Below are positions 1 to 7,450 of a DNA stretch of 7,450 nt, one piece after another. The notes under the pieces were generated by a model. That model was not told the origin of the DNA and searched no databases. It was given only the letters and a program-made list of their open reading frames with translations. The translations under genes were made by a program, and so were the position numbers. This stretch comes from Paraspadella gotoi (lineage: Eukaryota; Animalia; Chaetognatha): assembly GCA_051294375.1 (NCBI GenBank), contig JBJCIZ010000627.1, forward strand, positions 1-7,450. The letters run 5' to 3'. How positions within the stretch are numbered: position 1 is the stretch's first letter; each line of letters begins with the position of its first letter.

Positions 1-377
1 ATTTTTTGATCAAAAGCATTACTTACATTATTATTAATATTATATTTATAACATAATATTTTTAGTCGGATCAGCTTATTGCAGATTCCGATTCTATAAT
101 CCACTTTATCAGTCCTTTGGTCCTACCCAAAATTTTTTTTTGTAAATCATTTTTATCATATCAGAACCTTAAATTATAATAAATTATTATAAATTATGTC
201 TGTTTCTTTGTTGCACTAACAAAAAACTTTAATTACTCGTGATTAGATGAATAGATTGGAATAAAATTTTGTGAATAAGTAGAAAACTGTATGATTGAAC
301 TGAATGTAGTTTCGATGGAATTGTGAAATTGAGTTTAAATGAATAAAATTAAATATTACTTTTGTTTGAATTTTTAT

Positions 378-466
378 AAAGTTATACAAATTAAAAAAGT
401 TTTACAAGTTGAAAAAATTATTTAAGTTAAAAAACTTGTAGAAATTAAAAAATCATGCAAATCAAA
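378..466 (+). repeat. Degenerate 18-bp minisatellite, ~5 units (copy at 5047-5135)
   Basis: Units: aaagttatacaaattaaa / aaagttttacaagttgaa / aaaattatttaagttaaa / aaacttgtagaaattaaa / aaatcatgcaaatcaaa. Confidence 0.75.
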
Positions 467-542
467 ATAATGAACAAAATATTTAAAATATTGAAGAAAC
501 AGTAATTATTGTAATGTGTTAGTAACAGAACCGTTCAATATA

Positions 543-618
543 AGCAGTCCCTGAACTTCGGATCAGGCTGTAACACCATGTTACAGGCGGGTTAAGCGCC
601 CCGTCCCTCTTAACTGCC
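543..618 (-). ncRNA. Candidate twister self-cleaving ribozyme, type-P5 permutation, with minimal P1
   Basis: Minus strand: GGCAGUU-AA-GAGG-GA-CGGG-GCGC-U-U^AA-CCC-GC-CUGUAACA-UGG-UGUUACAG-CCUGA-UCCGAAGU-UCAGG-GACUGCU. P5 GGCAGUU/GACUGCU; P3 8 bp perfect; P4 CCUGA/UCAGG; 8-nt L4 UCCGAAGU (consensus-like UCCYAAGC); T1 UCCG/CGGG; T2 GC/GU; conserved GA and UAA. P2 is imperfect (CCC with GAGG, one bulged A). Predicted cut between 594 and 593. Confidence 0.8.
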
Positions 619-620
619 AG

Positions 621-692
621 ACGACCACCGGGCTAGAACCCCGGACCTTTGGGTTGGGAAGCGAATGACTTGCCTCCGGCACCAATGGCCGC
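621..692 (-). ncRNA. tRNA-derived head (Gly-like, degenerate anticodon arm); SINE-type Pol III promoter module
   Basis: 72 nt. Acceptor stem GCGGCCA/UGGUCGU, D-stem GGUG/CAUU with A-box-like UGGUGCCGGAGG, T-stem CCGGG/CCCGG with B-box-like GGUUCUAGCCC. The anticodon stem pairs poorly, so it is unlikely to be a decoding tRNA. Confidence 0.75.
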
Positions 693-1016
693 TGATGAAC
701 GGTTGGTAGATTTTAGTCCACCATAATATTATATTTGATAACATTTTTTTTAATGCGCAGCCACAAGTTTTTTGACTTATTGATCAATTGATTTATAAAT
801 TTTTTAAAAAATTTATTTAAAAATCTATTATAATTTATTTTCCTCTTTAATAAACTGATTACCGCTAAATTATTATAGATCTAACATTGTTTGCTCAAAC
901 TTGTTTTATCAGATTTGGAGTAAAAAATAATCCTTAGCAAATAGTGAAAAGGATTAATCCCTATAAAATAAACCAGGCTTGAATTATTGCTGCATAATAT
1001 GATTATTTTTTTTTTT

Positions 1017-1229
1017 TTAACAAAATCTTTAAGGAATAACAGATTTTTTTAAAGTTCAACAACGAATTTTTTATTTCATAGGGACATGTTTCGACTCTGT
1101 GGTTAAGAGTCTTCATCGAAACATGTCCCTATGAAATAAAAAATTTGTTGTTGAACTCGAAAAAATCTGTTATTCCTTAAATTCATAAACACAACGAAAA
1201 AGAAAATCATAACAATATTAACAAAATCT
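1017..1229. mobile_element. Palindromic Penelope-like-element (PLE) remnant with 12-bp target-site duplication
   Basis: Inverted arms 1028-1094 and 1116-1181 (~66 bp, about 3 mismatches and 1 indel) around a 21-nt spacer, then a 36-bp unpaired tail. TTAACAAAATCT is directly repeated at 1017-1028 and 1218-1229. A hammerhead core sits at the centre. Confidence 0.75.
1083..1117 (-). ncRNA. Truncated minimal hammerhead ribozyme core (PLE type), probably inactive
   Basis: Minus strand (UC)GAUGA-A-GACUC-UUAACCACA-GAGUC-GAAA-CAUGUC: 5-bp stem II, GAAA, palindromic ACAUGU in place of stem III, GUC triplet. The CU of CUGAUGA is lost at the fold-back junction. Confidence 0.7.
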
Positions 1230-1376
1230 AAAATTTTTTTTTTGGACTTGTTTAATACTTAAATCTGATAATACATTCACAGATAAATAAAAATGATAAT
1301 TTTTGCGTACAGAAAGGTTACCCAAAGCTTTTATTAATATTTTATAATATAAAAAAAAATTCTGGAACATTTACAG

Positions 1377-1431
1377 NNNNNNNNNNNNNNNNNNNNNNNN
1401 NNNNNNNNNNNNNNNNNNNNNNNNNNNNNNN
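1377..1431. other. Assembly gap (55 N)
   Basis: Run of N. It corresponds to ~102 bp (6041-6142) in the second copy. Confidence 1.
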
Positions 1432-1544
1432 AAAGGTAAAGATTTTTAATAATAATAGCTTAATTAAAAAATATTAAAAAATAACTGGAAATTAATATAT
1501 TTTGATACTTTCTAATATAAAAAAAATATTCTGAAACATTTACA

Positions 1545-1554
1545 NNNNNNNNNN
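1545..1554. other. Assembly gap (10 N); homology to copy 2 ends here
   Basis: Run of N. Sequence after it does not match 6255 onward. Confidence 1.
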
Positions 1555-1592
1555 AAATATTTGAATTTTACTGACTCTTAATTTAAAACAAT

Positions 1593-3108
1593 TTAATAAA
1601 ATTTTAATATGTTTAATTAAGCTAAGTCAGTTATATTTAATCTTTTAAAATTTTAAGTTAAAATTGTCAAAAACTTTTGAGGTATCAGGCCGCCAAAATA
1701 GCCTGTCGAGAGTCTGGAGCAAGATTCCTTACTAAATGAATGGATACTTTTTAATGCTAATTTTATAGTAGAAGTTATTAGTAAACCTTAGCTAATTCTT
1801 TAACTTGTACCAAATATTTAGTTATTTAATTATATTTAAGTTTAATTTATTATGATAAATAGCTTTAAAATAACCCTAACCTTGTGTTAAATAATAACGA
1901 CAGAATAGTGCCCATTTATATTTTGTAACTTAAGAAAAATAGTACAGAAACCAGCACAAAACTCTCATAACGACGCCGATCTGACGACGCTGAATACTCT
2001 CGCCAAAGACGTCAACACGCGTGGTGAAGCCGATACGCGACGTCAATGTCAGCACTTTATATCAGTTATTTGCTACACATACCAAAAAGAATAAGTTTGA
2101 ATGCAATCCAATTTTTCATTTCTAGGAAATATTTAAACACTTTAAAACAGATAAAGTTTGATAACCACATACAGGGGTGGGACCCTATATCGAGATAAAA
2201 CTTAACGTCCTGCCATGTCTGAACGATTTGGGATACAATAATAAAATCAAAATGAGTGGCAAAAGTTTATTCTGGATTTTTACTTTTATATACAATAAAA
2301 AAGAAATTTTTAAGCAACTACAAGGCGTCGTGGATGTTTTCAAAACATTTGGTCGTTTTTATGCGCATTGTATTGCATACAATATAAGCCATACTTGTTA
2401 ATATTTTTCAGTAATCGTTTCTGAACATGACAGTGTTATGTCTTATCAGCAATTCACCTGATTTTAAGCTTTTCATCACTATCCAAATTAAACCTATTTA
2501 ATTTTTGACTTATTTTTACATTCGCCTACCGGGATTTTTTGGTCGGTTATTTTTTTTTCGCTTCTTATGAAATCTCGGTACGCAAAAATAAAAAAAAGAC
2601 ATTGGTAAGGGGGACATATGTAAAAAGTGAGTCTTTTTGGGTTTTTTAAAAATTACTTAATTTTTTAATATGAAACATTAAATTATTAAAGCAAACATTT
2701 AAATTATATAAGATATATCATTTTTACAAAGCTTAATATATAATTTAATGATAAAAAATAACCCTAAACTTATGTTTTACATGTTTACTATCAGTATCAC
2801 TTTCATTGATGGCTTCTGTACCATTTTCCTAATATTAAGTAATCCTAATCGTGAATGGCAAATCATGTTAAGAGCGACACACTTTAAAAATGATTGCTAT
2901 TCTCTCGTTATTATTTAACACAAGGTTTGAGTTCTTTTAAAGCTATTTATCAGAAAAAAATTAACTTAAATATAATTATATATTTGAATATTTGTCACAC
3001 GTTAAAGAATTCTCTGAACCAGGAGTAAAGTAACAAGAATGCAGGAAAATAATATATTGACATCAGGAAAAAATCTTAGCTTAATTAAACATTTTAATAT
3101 TTTATTAA
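1593..3108. repeat. Diverged long inverted repeat (fold-back-like or inverted duplication)
   Basis: Three collinear inverted blocks: 1593-1626 vs 3075-3108 (32/34), 1794-1908 vs 2897-3011 (100/115 ungapped, hand count), 1930-1953 vs 2810-2832. Confidence 0.88.
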
Positions 3109-3491
3109 CTTTTATTAATGTTTTATCCGAACATCAAAATTTATTTTTAGCCCAAAAGACAAGTTAGTTCGGCAAAAACATGTACAAAATATGTACTTCG
3201 ATTTTTAATGTATTAGTAATTTATATAAATGTTTATGATGCATATTTATATCATATTATTTTGAGTATTTGATTACTATTTTCTAATAAAATTAAGTTTA
3301 TACACTTTTTTCATTTTTTATTCAGAAATATTTATTACATTTCTGTTTACCATAAAAAATATTAATTAATACTATTATTAAATATAATCAGTATATTTTT
3401 ATATATTTTTATCAGTAATCACTTAAGTAGTATAAATATTTTAAATTTGTATTTTAAAAAGAATTAATATGACAGTCTGCTATCTATAATT

Positions 3492-3578
3492 TTAAAAAAA
3501 CCCCAAAAAACAAAAAAAACCTAATAAAACCCAGCTCGCTGGTTTTTTTAAAAAAAACCCAGGTTCTTGCCAACCCAG
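3492..3578 (-). mobile_element. Solitary DNA-transposon terminus, hAT-like
   Basis: Minus strand reads CTGGGTTGGCAAGAACCTGGGTTTTTTTTAAAAAAACCAGCGAGCTGGGTTTTATTAGGTTTT. This resembles, from memory, invertebrate hAT ends starting CAGGGTTGGCAA with GGGTTTT-type subterminal repeats. No partner end or TSD is visible. Confidence 0.5.
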
Positions 3579-3714
3579 ATAACAGATTCGGATTCGTCAG
3601 AAAAAAATAAGAAACTTTTGTAAAATAAGTTTTATAATATTTTAATGTTAAAGCTGCGAAAAATTACAAAAACAATTTATCATATAATAGTGAAAAAGTA
3701 AAGAATTTTGACTG

Positions 3715-4258
3715 TTAAAATTTAACACTGTCGCAGACGTATTTGCTGAGAACTAGACAGACGTCGTCCTTGAGCGGATGACTTTGGTAAACGGATTCCC
3801 TCTCCGTGGTTCTTGCAAAACTAACAGCAGCGGCGAACGGAGGTGAGAGGAATTTTTCCGTGGTCGGATGTAAAACTGATGGTTTGTGCGGGACGCCAGC
3901 CGGGAATGATGGGGAAGAGTCGTTTGATGGTGGAGGCGAAGCCTTTGGCGTAGTTCGTAGTGATAGTCGGTCTTGGGAAGGCGGTCCTGGTGGCGGCGGC
4001 GACAAGGAGCGAGCCCGATCGTCGAGCGTTGCCCATAAGGTATCCTCGGCGGGAGAACGAGCGTCACACCCCCAAGTCCCAGGAAGAGGCGACGGCGCAG
4101 AATAATGGAACCAAGATAGCCACGGAGGTAATACGAAGGAGATTCAGTGATAACGCCGGAAAGTTATCTCCTGGCGTCGGAAAGCGGCGTCGACGCCGCC
4201 GACTTCGGAGACGAGATTCGGCATCGTAGGGGTCAAAGTCACTCGTCAGAGCAAATTC
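3715..4258 (-). other. GC/CpG-rich coding-like block of unknown identity (possible decayed exon or TE ORF)
   Basis: Sharp GC rise with several overlapping short ORFs. The Pro/Ser-rich minus frame ending at 3715 is open from about 4143, and an acceptor-like TTTAG precedes 4258 on the minus strand. No recognisable domain. Confidence 0.3.
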
Positions 4259-5211
4259 TAAATTTAAACAGACAGTTAATAAATACTACTACTAATTAAT
4301 AAAAGTAATCACTATGAAACACAAACAGTATCAAATATAAAAAGTAAATACGAGTCCCATGCCATGAATCGCGTACGGAGGCAGACGATCATAAAAGTAC
4401 CATGATGGAAAAAAAAATTGTCGCGGTTTTGAAAAGTTAATTTCATTATCAAATATATTTTTAGTATAATTATTAATAATAAATTAATCAATTAATCGAT
4501 CAAAAACATTTCAGATCAAATTGCCTAATTAATTAAATAATTAACTTGAATAAATTAATTATTAATTAATTAAATACTGATAATGATTGTAGGCAGATCT
4601 GACATTGTTTGCTCAAACTTGTTTAACCAATAAATAAGTTTAATATATAATATAACCTCCTTGGGATTAAATTTTTTGATCAAAAGCATTACTTACATTA
4701 TTATTAATATTATATTTATAACATAATATTTTTAGTCGGATCAGCTTATTGCAGATTCCGATTCTATAATCCACTTTATCAGTCCTTTGGTCCTACCCAA
4801 ATTTTTTTTTGTAAATCATTTTTATCATATCAGAACCTTAAATTATAATAAATTATTATAAATTATGTCTGTTTCTTTGTTGCACTAACAAAAAACTTTA
4901 ATTACTCGTGATTAGATGAATAGATTGGAATAAAATTTTGTGAATAAGTAGAAAACTGTATGATTGAACTGAATGTAGTTTCGATGGAATTGTGAAATTG
5001 AGTTTAAATGAATAAAATTAAATATTACTTTTGTTTGAATTTTTATAAAGTTATACAAATTAAAAAAGTTTTACAAGTTGAAAAAATTATTTAAGTTAAA
5101 AAACTTGTAGAAATTAAAAAATCATGCAAATCAAAATAATGAACAAAATATTTAAAATATTGAAGAAACAGTAATTATTGTAATGTGTTAGTAACAGAAC
5201 CGTTCAATATA

Positions 5212-5286
5212 AGCAGTCCCTGAACTTCGGATCAGGCTGTAACACCATGTTACAGGCGGGTTAAGCGCCCGTCCCTCTTAACTGCC
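5212..5286 (-). ncRNA. Second copy of the candidate type-P5 twister ribozyme
   Basis: Identical to 543-618 except one G fewer in the G-run (GA-CGGG-CGC-UUAA). Predicted cut between 5263 and 5262. Confidence 0.75.
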
Positions 5287-5288
5287 AG

Positions 5289-5359
5289 ACGACCACCGGG
5301 CTAGAACCCGGACCTTTGGGTTGGGAAGCGAATGACTTGCCTCCGGCACCAATGGCCGC
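5289..5359 (-). ncRNA. Second copy of the tRNA-derived head
   Basis: Identical to 621-692 except one G fewer in the T-arm G-run. Confidence 0.72.
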
Positions 5360-5683
5360 TGATGAACGGTTGGTAGATTTTAGTCCACCATAATATTATA
5401 TTTGATAACATTTTTTTTAATGCGCAGCCACAAGTTTTTTGACTTATTGATCAATTGATTTATAAATTTTTTAAAAAATTTATTTAAAAATCTATTATAA
5501 TTTATTTTCCTCTTTAATAAACTGATTACCGCTAAATTATTATAGATCTAACATTGTTTGCTCAAACTTGTTTTATCAGATTTGGAGTAAAAAATAATCC
5601 TTAGCAAATAGTGAAAAGGATTAATCCCTATAAAATAAACCAGGCTTGAATTATTGCTGCATAATATGATTATTTTTTTTTTT

Positions 5684-5894
5684 TTAACAAAATCTTTAAG
5701 GAATAACAGATTTTTTTAAAGTTCAACAACGAATTTTTTATTTCATAGGGACATGTTTCGACTCTGTGGTTAAGAGTCTTCATCGAAACATGTCCTATGA
5801 AATAAAAAATTTGTTGTTGAACTCGAAAAAATCTGTTATTCCTTAAATTCATAAACACAACGAAAAAGAAATCATAACAATATTAACAAAATCT
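5684..5894. mobile_element. Second copy of the palindromic PLE/hammerhead remnant
   Basis: Palindrome 5695-5847; TSD TTAACAAAATCT at 5684-5695 and 5883-5894. Confidence 0.73.
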
Positions 5895-6008
5895 AAAATT
5901 TTTTTTTGGACTTGTTTAATACTTAAATCTGATAATACATTCACAGATAAATAAAAATGATAATTTTTGCGTACAGAAAGGTTACCCAAAGCTTTTATTA
6001 ATATTTTA

Positions 6009-6430
6009 TAATATAAAAAAAAATTCTGGAACATTTACAGCATTTTTTTTAATACCACTCTTTTTTAAGATAAAAATTAAGATTCATCCCTGAATCTATC
6101 CTAATGAAGATGATGCAATAAACATTTAATATGAGACTGAAAAAAGGTAAAGATTTTTAATAATAATAGCTTAATTAAAAAATATTAAAAAATAACTGGA
6201 AATTAATATATTTGATACTTTCTAATATAAAAAAAATATTCTGAAACATTTACAGCATTAATATATTTTTAATACCACTCTTTTTTAAGATATAAATTAA
6301 TATACATCCTTAAATTTATCCTGATGAAGATAATGCAATAACTATTTGATATGAGATTGAAAAAAGGTAAGGATTTTTAATAATAACGGTTTAACTAAAA
6401 AAATATTAAAAAACATCGGAAAATAGTATA
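6009..6430 (+). repeat. Diverged tandem duplication, period ~214 bp
   Basis: Units start at 6009 and 6223 and share, in order, aacatttacagcatt, tttttaataccactcttttttaagata, atgaagat-atgcaataa, tgaaaaaaggtaa-gatttttaataataa. Confidence 0.92.
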
Positions 6431-7017
6431 AATAAAAAATATAAATATAAAAAAGATAAAAAAAAAGAAAGCATTTTTTGAACAACTCATTTTATTTTTC
6501 ATAAAACTTTTGTATTTTTATTTTTTTTTTTCCATCATGGTATGAACGTTATAACCGTAACACCATCCGCGAATTGCAGTGTCAAGTCCGCAAAACAATT
6601 TCCGCTAATAGAGTCAAGTAAAAAAATATTATAACTTACCACGTTCTTTTTATGTGCCATTAAATCATAGAGATTAAAAAAAATTATTTTGAGATATTTT
6701 TTTTTTGTAATGGGACAGGTTCCATAAAATTAACAGCAATAATAATATTTTAAATAGTTCAAAAATAACAATATTATAGTACTCGTAGCTCGTAGTGTTA
6801 GGACCCGCCGGTCCGTCCCTCGGCGAGCCGCTTCGGGCAAATAGTTGAAGGTTCTCGCAAACTATTTGTAACATAGTCGGGACTCCTGGTCAAAACGCCG
6901 CAGTTTTACGAAATCTCAAAATTGTTTTAAAACAAACAACAAATGTACATATTTAACGTAAAATCTATTTATTAATTATAATTTTCGTAAAAAAAGAAAA
7001 AAAATCGAGCGGGAATA

Positions 7018-7426
7018 ATGTTTATAAACTCGCGAGTCAACAAAACCTCTGATTCGTGAACCGCGGCTGGCTCGACGAAGTGCCATGGCTTTCGGTTTGG
7101 TTCTTGCGGTAACGTAAGTTATGCGCATTCAGGGCCGTATAAAGAATCCCAGAGCGAACAAAAGTCGGGGATTTAATTGTATTTCATTTAAAAACACGAT
7201 TGCGCCACGATTGCTCCACCGGGAAACAAATGACAACGCACAAATTGATCTCTTGGTCAATTTAAAAGAAATAGTTAAGGACGGCGATACGTGGAAAATA
7301 AAGCCCGAAAAACCAGTTAATTGGATTGTTAAATTAAACAAGCAAGCTTGGTAAAATTTAAAGAAAAAAAGATACCCTGTCTTCGCCAAGACAAGAGTCT
7401 ATCTGACTGGGTAACCATACCCATGT
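7018..7426 (+). pseudogene. Possible decayed coding sequence of unknown product
   Basis: Moderate GC. The 77-aa ORF 7121-7354 reads protein-like (AQIDLLVNLKEIVKDGDTWKIKPEKPVNWIVKLNKQAW) and the frame continues past single stops on both sides. No family recognised. Confidence 0.25.
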
Positions 7427-7450
7427 ATTTAGTATAGTCTAGGAGAACGA

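Follow-up and report, generated by a model that had tools for sequence, protein, structure and literature searches.

A dispersed 234-bp repeat with a tRNA-derived head and an atypical twister-like core: a tentative Pol III-driven LTR retrozyme in an animal genome

The SINE-like repeats of Schistosoma that bear hammerhead ribozymes are the Sm-alpha repeats. These place a Pol III promoter upstream of the self-cleaving motif, often occur in tandem and yield monomers from multimers, as described in PMC6765202. Most genomic twisters have yet to be given a biological role; the one met in the literature covered is the processing of the 5' ends of RTE elements, and in the 5' twister variants of Perere-3/RTE the cut sets the 5' end beside the target-site duplication (TSD; PMC8501958). 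Plant LTR retrozymes (Cervera 2016) carry a ribozyme, a type III hammerhead, inside each of their 300-400-bp LTRs, come with TSDs of 4 bp, with solo units and with RNAs in circular form, and have had these circles demonstrated (PMC4918200); the RNA of animal retrozymes can be circularised in vitro by RtcB according to PMC7229834. The Helenus TRIMs (TRIMp3; Kojima 2024) combine a non-functional tRNA promoter inside LTRs of 120-323 bp with 4-bp TSDs in animals and with solo LTRs, and in the supplement to their description three wasp Helenus LTRs start with TA and two are seen to end with CA (PMC10886601).

The unit considered here spans 492-725 on the minus strand of a 7,450-nt stretch of DNA from the chaetognath Paraspadella gotoi (assembly GCA_051294375.1, contig JBJCIZ010000627.1, positions 1 to 7,450; henceforth the window). 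With Helenus, as presented in PMC10886601, it has in common a dead tRNA with promoter boxes inside a putative short terminal repeat, a putative 4-bp TSD, read from one insertion, a TA start, the occurrence of solo units and its size; unlike Helenus, it has a box A-like word that differs from the TRGCY of most of those elements, it lacks both the terminal inverted repeats of Helenus LTRs and the T-run that most of them show after the tRNA part, and no internal part was found for it. With plant retrozymes (PMC4918200) it shares the position of the predicted ribozyme inside the repeat and away from its end, the putative 4-bp TSD, the solo units and a proposed circle-based copying, but in place of the plant hammerhead it has a twister core that follows a promoter derived from a tRNA, its genome is AT-rich, and its circles are predicted. 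Like the Perere-3/RTE variants, it would place a twister in an animal retroelement, but its predicted cut lies about 100 nt inside the unit (PMC8501958); unlike the Schistosoma repeats (PMC6765202), its family is dispersed, has fixed ends and carries a twister fold. We class the unit as one that would function in the manner of both an LTR retrozyme and a Helenus LTR without being proven to belong to either group, and its twister as atypical, since it departs from the consensus in three features.

The repeat family, its ends, its anatomy and the conservation of its core are established. The explanation of these that we prefer, and regard as evenly poised between right and wrong, is that the unit is a solo LTR of a Helenus-like miniature non-coding LTR retrotransposon that uses retrozyme logic. 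The complete picture of a Pol III-driven animal LTR retrozyme, with a Helenus-type LTR, an active minimal P5-order twister, a circular RNA template, thousands of solo LTRs and invisibility to Rfam, is put forward tentatively. If true, it would join two element types that have been described separately, namely Pol III TRIMs without ribozymes and the hammerhead LTR retrozymes of plants, and a twister fixed in a repeat with a tRNA promoter allows a second role for this ribozyme, the cutting out of a unit for circularisation, to be tested directly. Should an atypical twister missed by Rfam prove to cleave, current models would undercount eukaryotic twisters; should there be no cleavage, or should the unit be an ordinary SINE, what is left would be a repeat family that is new but only modestly interesting. 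A tRNA-headed repeat with a twister is apparently an undescribed combination: in the literature covered, mostly open papers, we found neither a tRNA-headed twister element nor a twister-bearing TRIM; the family or its motif may stand in Repbase or among the about 2600 twister candidates of PMC11662667.

The repeat unit, its ends and its family in public contigs

Eleven public runs contain the stretch, nine of them from one organism, and contigs from four runs were aligned on 380-860 (15,823, 2,683, 991 and 1 contigs, the single one being that of run X10, from organism B, which covers 492-552 only); run X11 supplied one contig over 528-608 at depth 2. Piles of loose ends mark both limits of the unit, with 104, 57 and 23 contigs ending at 725 in X1, X5 and X9, and 50, 34 and 14 at 492 in the same runs, where X10 adds one more. 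Beyond these positions the flanks are unrelated among contigs (agreement 0.39-0.45 in X1, X5 and X9, three runs from three studies). The piles and the unrelated flanks together define a unit of 234 bp, which extends 33 nt upstream of the tRNA-like head and 51 nt past P5 of the twister core. Its GC content is 50%, against 14-16% in the flanks, and its RNA strand starts with TA and ends with CA. Immediately outside lies a 4-bp direct repeat, ATAT at 726-729 on the RNA 5' side and identical to 488-491 on the 3' side, which falls exactly at the ends defined by the reads and is read as the TSD; given the flank composition its chance is about 0.02 for this one insertion, and in such AT-rich DNA the same register can also be read as a 6-bp repeat. 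The first-pass annotation, made from the letters of the window, had noted neither a poly(A) tail nor a close TSD. The absence of poly(A) stands, in that neither poly(A) nor a run of four U occurs in the unit, and the loose-end consensus likewise lacks a poly(A) or microsatellite tail, whereas the absence of a TSD gives way to the 4-bp repeat at the true ends. The T4 at 488-485 that it had proposed as terminator lies outside the element, in the host flank.

Over 533-702 the contigs of X1 add up to a depth of 3.6-4.8 million, as against 155-315 for the listed long contigs, which points to thousands of dispersed copies, with the reservation that summed depth is not copy number. The 234-bp family is real, abundant and testable. 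It forms a dispersed repeat in its own right, and the earlier suggestion that it might be a resident ncRNA of a larger element is not supported: the two members of the surrounding 1376-bp duplication (1-1376 / 4671-6040), which ends at an N gap, differ by six homopolymer indels of 1 nt each, without any substitution. This duplication, which is probably an uncollapsed assembly overlap, encloses the second window copy (5161-5392, minus strand), which has one G fewer at two homopolymers, neither deletion being among the listed family variants. The two window copies thus represent a single insertion within the duplication and were dropped as independent support. A further near-perfect duplicated pair, 1432-1544 and 6143-6254, lies beside N gaps.

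Several minor features accompany the ends. Additional loose ends at 523-534 mark an older or sister subfamily that has a different 3' tail and the same terminal motif. In all seven rows at 725 and 492 the loose sequence opens with C or G, possibly because of a target preference or a bias of the alignment. In X1, and in neither X5 nor X9, the loose-end consensus behind 725 (104 ends) is pyrimidine-rich, at an agreement of 0.41; on the RNA strand this stretch would be a PPT-like purine run just before the unit.

Within the unit, the 33 nt ahead of the head contain a predicted 7-bp hairpin at the RNA 5' terminus (704-723, minus strand), which would be U3-like if the unit is an LTR, and at 708 the family majority (97-99.7%) converts a G.U pair of this hairpin to G-C. 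The last part of the RNA strand, 492-528, is an AT-rich tail that varies more among subfamilies in the contigs and holds a short palindrome at 497-514. Head and ribozyme are enclosed by a 9-bp inverted repeat whose predicted arms lie at 696-704 and 529-537 on the minus strand (704-696 pairing with 537-529), a length reached by 14 of 3000 shuffles. Such an arrangement recalls non-autonomous rolling-circle elements of the HINE/Helitron2 type, in which an asymmetric inverted repeat and hairpins would form the ends and the tRNA-twister cassette would be cargo. The arms do lie inside both ends, with the 5' end bearing a hairpin and the 3' end the palindrome, and the 3' arm is 37 nt from its end, near the 38-60 bp reported for HINEs in PMC4067079. 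The known repeats, however, measure 12-15 bp and stand 2-4 nt from the 5' end, with TT on their flanks and no TSD (PMC4067079, PMC5148889), whereas the repeat of the window unit is 9 bp long, lies 21 nt inside and is accompanied, in this one copy, by the 4-bp duplication, and the loose-end consensus does not start with TT. As the DNA folds of the ends are also weak (z -0.05 to -1.5), and the 9-bp repeat works equally as a closing stem in RNA, we consider a rolling-circle origin very unlikely. A TIR transposon was ruled out, there being no terminal inverted repeat. The predicted cut site was likewise rejected as an element end: among the rows listed there is no pile of loose ends at 593/594, and one contig ends at 592.

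The tRNA-like head and the twister core

The 72-nt head, the 2-nt gap and the P5-order twister core that the first-pass annotation had placed between 692 and 543 on the minus strand are borne out in all coordinates by the strand reading and the pair table, and the association of a tRNA-derived, Pol III-type head with a P5-order twister core is now supported within a repeat family. The head (621-692, minus strand) is a degenerate, Gly-CCC-like tRNA, identified by ARAGORN at a lowered threshold, by the pair table and by family variants. It comprises a 7-bp acceptor that includes two G.U pairs, a 5-bp T-arm, a box A-like word at 684-673 and a box B-like word at 640-630, with GGTTC at 640-636. Its anticodon stem forms three of five pairs, and the majority letters of the family leave it broken, while family variants at 621 and 624 turn acceptor G.U pairs into G-C. 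With default settings ARAGORN makes no call on the head; at the 85% threshold it reports a Gly(CCC) pseudo-tRNA, as one of four calls of which two are unrelated AT-rich stretches. A functional tRNA gene is ruled out by the cloverleaf, which is not intact, and a ribozyme that trims tRNA 3' ends by the position of the predicted cut, 27 nt past the acceptor end. On its letters the head reads as a promoter rather than a tRNA gene, and would be used by Pol III.

The twister core (543-618, minus strand), recognised by the pair table, a descriptor and the family variants, begins after the 2-nt linker with P5 (618-612/549-543), which has seven pairs in the window copy. The catalytic G and A of the twister consensus are present as G605-A604, and the L1 residues (N-A-A) as U594-A593-A592, the predicted cut falling at 594/593. 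The T1 pseudoknot has three Watson-Crick pairs (603-601/561-559) and T2 has two pairs (588-587/556-555), one of them a G.U in the window copy. P3 occupies 586-568 (7 bp, 19 nt), P4 forms 5 bp (567-563/554-550) and L4 has 8 nt (562-555). P1 is vestigial, with at most two pairs in a 6-nt region. Compared with the type-P5 twister of Rfam (RF02684), the part order, the G-A, UAA and GC residues, the 8-nt L4 and both pseudoknots are alike. The differences include three deviations from consensus, namely that there is almost no P1 (6 nt in the region, against 18-20 in three positive controls), that the 5' strand of P2 has 3 nt where all three positives have 4, and that P4 is closed by A-U where all three have G-C; in addition a 19-nt P3 is inserted and there is no model match. 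The outer T1 pair is C-G where the Rfam P5 consensus has G-C; the T1 swap noted in the first pass thus stands as a difference from that consensus, but not as covariation among copies.

The resemblance was assessed with a lenient P5-order descriptor, composed after the window motif had been seen, that asks for the core residues and for pairing in T1, P2 and P4 and makes no use of P3 and P5. It matches both window copies and three Rfam-confirmed phage twisters, but none of 15 other loci, and finds two matches per 2.5 Gb of random DNA. P3 and P5, which it ignores, also pair in the window motif. This chance rate, taken together with the pairing of P3 and P5, puts the match far beyond chance and identifies the motif as an atypical twister; that it is of the twister class by design is very probable. 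The Rfam twister models gave no match to the window copy, either in the whole window (E 5) or in the 201 bases of 520-720 (E 10); the absence of a covariance-model match was one of three refuting outcomes that the first-pass annotation had named. As a control, seven viral loci were fetched by a generic core pattern, of which three, L012:97-151(-), L015:99-154(+) and L017:98-154(+), all type-P5 twisters in viral contigs, matched Twister-P5 above the Rfam gathering score. That model, of 58 positions, includes a P1 hairpin of 8 bp and a P2 of 4 bp but lacks P3, and we attribute the miss to its shape.

Published work bears on the three deviations in both directions. Natural twisters tolerate the loss of P1 and bulges or length changes in P2 (PMC11662667, PMC5408937), and wobbles in the 2-bp pseudoknot were tolerated in the large test of PMC11662667. 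The G-C pair that closes P4 is, however, termed essentially invariant in the review PMC5408937, which also passes on the suggestion that the active site may be disturbed when P2 changes in length. The folding z-score is about -2.6 for the head and for the ribozyme part separately, and -2.7 for the entire 234-nt unit. By nearest-neighbour energies, which leave pseudoknots uncounted, a competing nested fold reaches -29.9 kcal/mol, against -21.7 for the nested part of the twister fold, and P2 is able to slip onto G605 at -24.2.

Variation among the contigs leaves the core largely unaltered. The U at 555 is private to the window copy, and the C of the family, found in 98.7, 99.8 and 99.8% (X1, X5 and X9) and also carried by the one X11 contig, makes T2 Watson-Crick. 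Within 543-692, X1 shows six variants of non-CpG type at 10% or more, of which those at 578, 579 and 678 lie in loops and those at 618, 621 and 624 interchange G.U and Watson-Crick pairs. At a 1% threshold, 16 of the 19 variant rows over 520-632 are changes of the C>T or G>A kind, which peak at CpG sites and have the look of decay that followed insertion; one such CpG-type change, at 559, would break T1 and reaches 13.5% in X1 and 2-4% in X5 and X9. No variant is listed at G605-A604 or at U594-A593-A592, and no position of the twister core varies beyond deamination-type decay. Two-sided covariation does not appear among these unphased copies, in which the changes are one-sided exchanges of G.U and Watson-Crick pairs and changes in loops. 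Across 532-701 the C>T and G>A changes of X1 concentrate at CpG sites, suggesting methylation of the repeat by the host.

The predicted twister probably cleaves. The contrary explanation, in which the element is real, whatever its mover, and the twister-like part is a relic or misfolds and does not cleave, draws on the three deviations and the more stable alternative fold, on the Rfam miss, and on the consideration that low variation may merely reflect a young family. We hold it to be somewhat unlikely, in that the family majority retains every catalytic and pseudoknot residue next to an anticodon stem that has lost its pairing, and about 94% of natural twister candidates cleaved in a large test (PMC11662667). 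Because this explanation overlaps the other rivals, the probabilities attached to them are not additive.

A pattern of the family type had no match in viral contigs and 11 in metagenome contigs, none of which passes the lenient descriptor; the exact 31-nt twister core had none in the genome contigs searched. A short-P2 twister pattern had 32 viral matches, none with four P4 pairs, and no phage record matched. No second twister with the same deviations was thus found in the viral or metagenome contigs searched, and the single match to a tRNA-head pattern, in a GC-rich bacterial contig, was put down to chance. The main text of PMC10886601 mentions no ribozyme (the word 'twister' occurs 0 times), and six core words searched in its supplement, where line breaks may hide words, revealed no LTR with a twister L4. 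In the same supplement, a 12-letter word of 597-586 recurs in both consensus sequences of Ajax LTRs, and the Ajax internal parts end near an L4-like word; by eye these lack the catalytic G and T2, and the resemblance may be coincidence.

Routes of transcription, cleavage and mobilisation

From this anatomy we infer transcription, cleavage and a route of mobilisation. If the unit is the LTR of a retrozyme-like element, Pol III would start the element RNA from the tRNA-derived head, the twister in each LTR would cut this RNA at 594/593, and the RNA between the two cuts would be circularised as in plant retrozymes, the circle serving as template. The 33 nt upstream of the promoter would be restored from the second LTR, both arms of the 9-bp stem (704-696/537-529) would be present in the circle, and solo LTRs such as the window copy would be dead ends or products of recombination. 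The LTR-retrozyme reading accounts for the upstream 33 nt, for ends that differ from the cut, for a cut in mid-unit, for the missing terminator and for the 9-bp stem. It is supported by the sharp ends at 492/725 with the 4-bp duplication exactly there; against it, the termini are almost without inverted repeat, unlike those of the Helenus LTRs compared. Neither a two-LTR copy nor a primer-binding site or polypurine tract appears in the joints and loose ends listed, and no joint from 725 to 492 is among the 15 listed of 47 joints. That the full circle-based cycle operates for the family is possible, though we lean against it.

The SINE-like family that the first-pass annotation had named as one of two possibilities stands as a repeat family, while its SINE character is weakened. 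A tRNA-headed SINE would be moved by a LINE enzyme through target-primed reverse transcription, its twister being slow, regulated or active on multimers, like the hammerhead of the Schistosoma repeats. The A- and B-box words of the head and the lack of an internal terminator in the unit would suit it, as would the depth, whose fall sets in sooner at the RNA 3' end than on the 5' side. On the other hand, 33 conserved nt precede the head, so that about 40 nt lie before box A. That is more than a Pol III transcript should include. The loose ends carry no poly(A) or microsatellite tail, and a 4-bp TSD with TA...CA ends fits a plain SINE poorly. There are precedents for several of the parts: PMC6765202 describes the hammerhead-bearing SINE-like repeats of Schistosoma as transcribed by Pol III, PMC8501958 places twisters at the 5' ends of RTE elements, and according to PMC5786205 SINE bodies take up 5' parts of RTE. 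In the P5 order, however, half of the ribozyme lies upstream of the cut, an arrangement that the RTE 5' twisters do not have, and a cut in mid-unit would destroy a SINE template; where a ribozyme follows the head of a SINE, PMC5786205 leads one to expect 5' truncation. The copies are dispersed and not tandem, and their ends differ from the cut site. Taken together, we judge a SINE of this kind unlikely, and keep to the LTR-retrozyme reading.

Other features of the window

A long fold-back at 1028-1181 (with a copy at 5695-5847) reaches z -12.6 for 1060-1150 and contains the remnant of a hammerhead-like core on the minus strand. It presumably resembles the hammerhead-bearing fold-backs found in Penelope-like elements, and its presence suggests that such elements probably occur in this genome. 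This raises the alternative that Penelope-like enzymes move the 234-bp family as a short element whose end repeat holds the tRNA promoter, an explanation favoured by the fold-back with its hammerhead-like remnant. Both ends of the unit are sharp, however, and none of the joints listed changes strand; the hammerhead-like words on the plus strand of the unit (692-698, 496-500) assemble no hammerhead by inspection, the words being there and the stems absent, and a plus-strand hammerhead was rejected as a candidate. A Penelope-driven element is accordingly held to be highly improbable.

On either side of the element, 18-bp tandem units and a separate stretch of raised depth (373-452 and 771-838) represent two more repeat families. 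Inverted arms of 127 nt at 1794-1920 and 2885-3011, 84% complementary and 964 nt apart, have a MITE-like arrangement. Finally, a GC-rich island holds a Pro/Ser-rich frame at 3715-4005 (minus strand), possibly a gene exon or a fragment of one, with a weak match to zf-nanos (E 0.005, 17.4 bits against a cut-off of 27), the sole match in a Pfam search of 8 of the 11 window ORFs.
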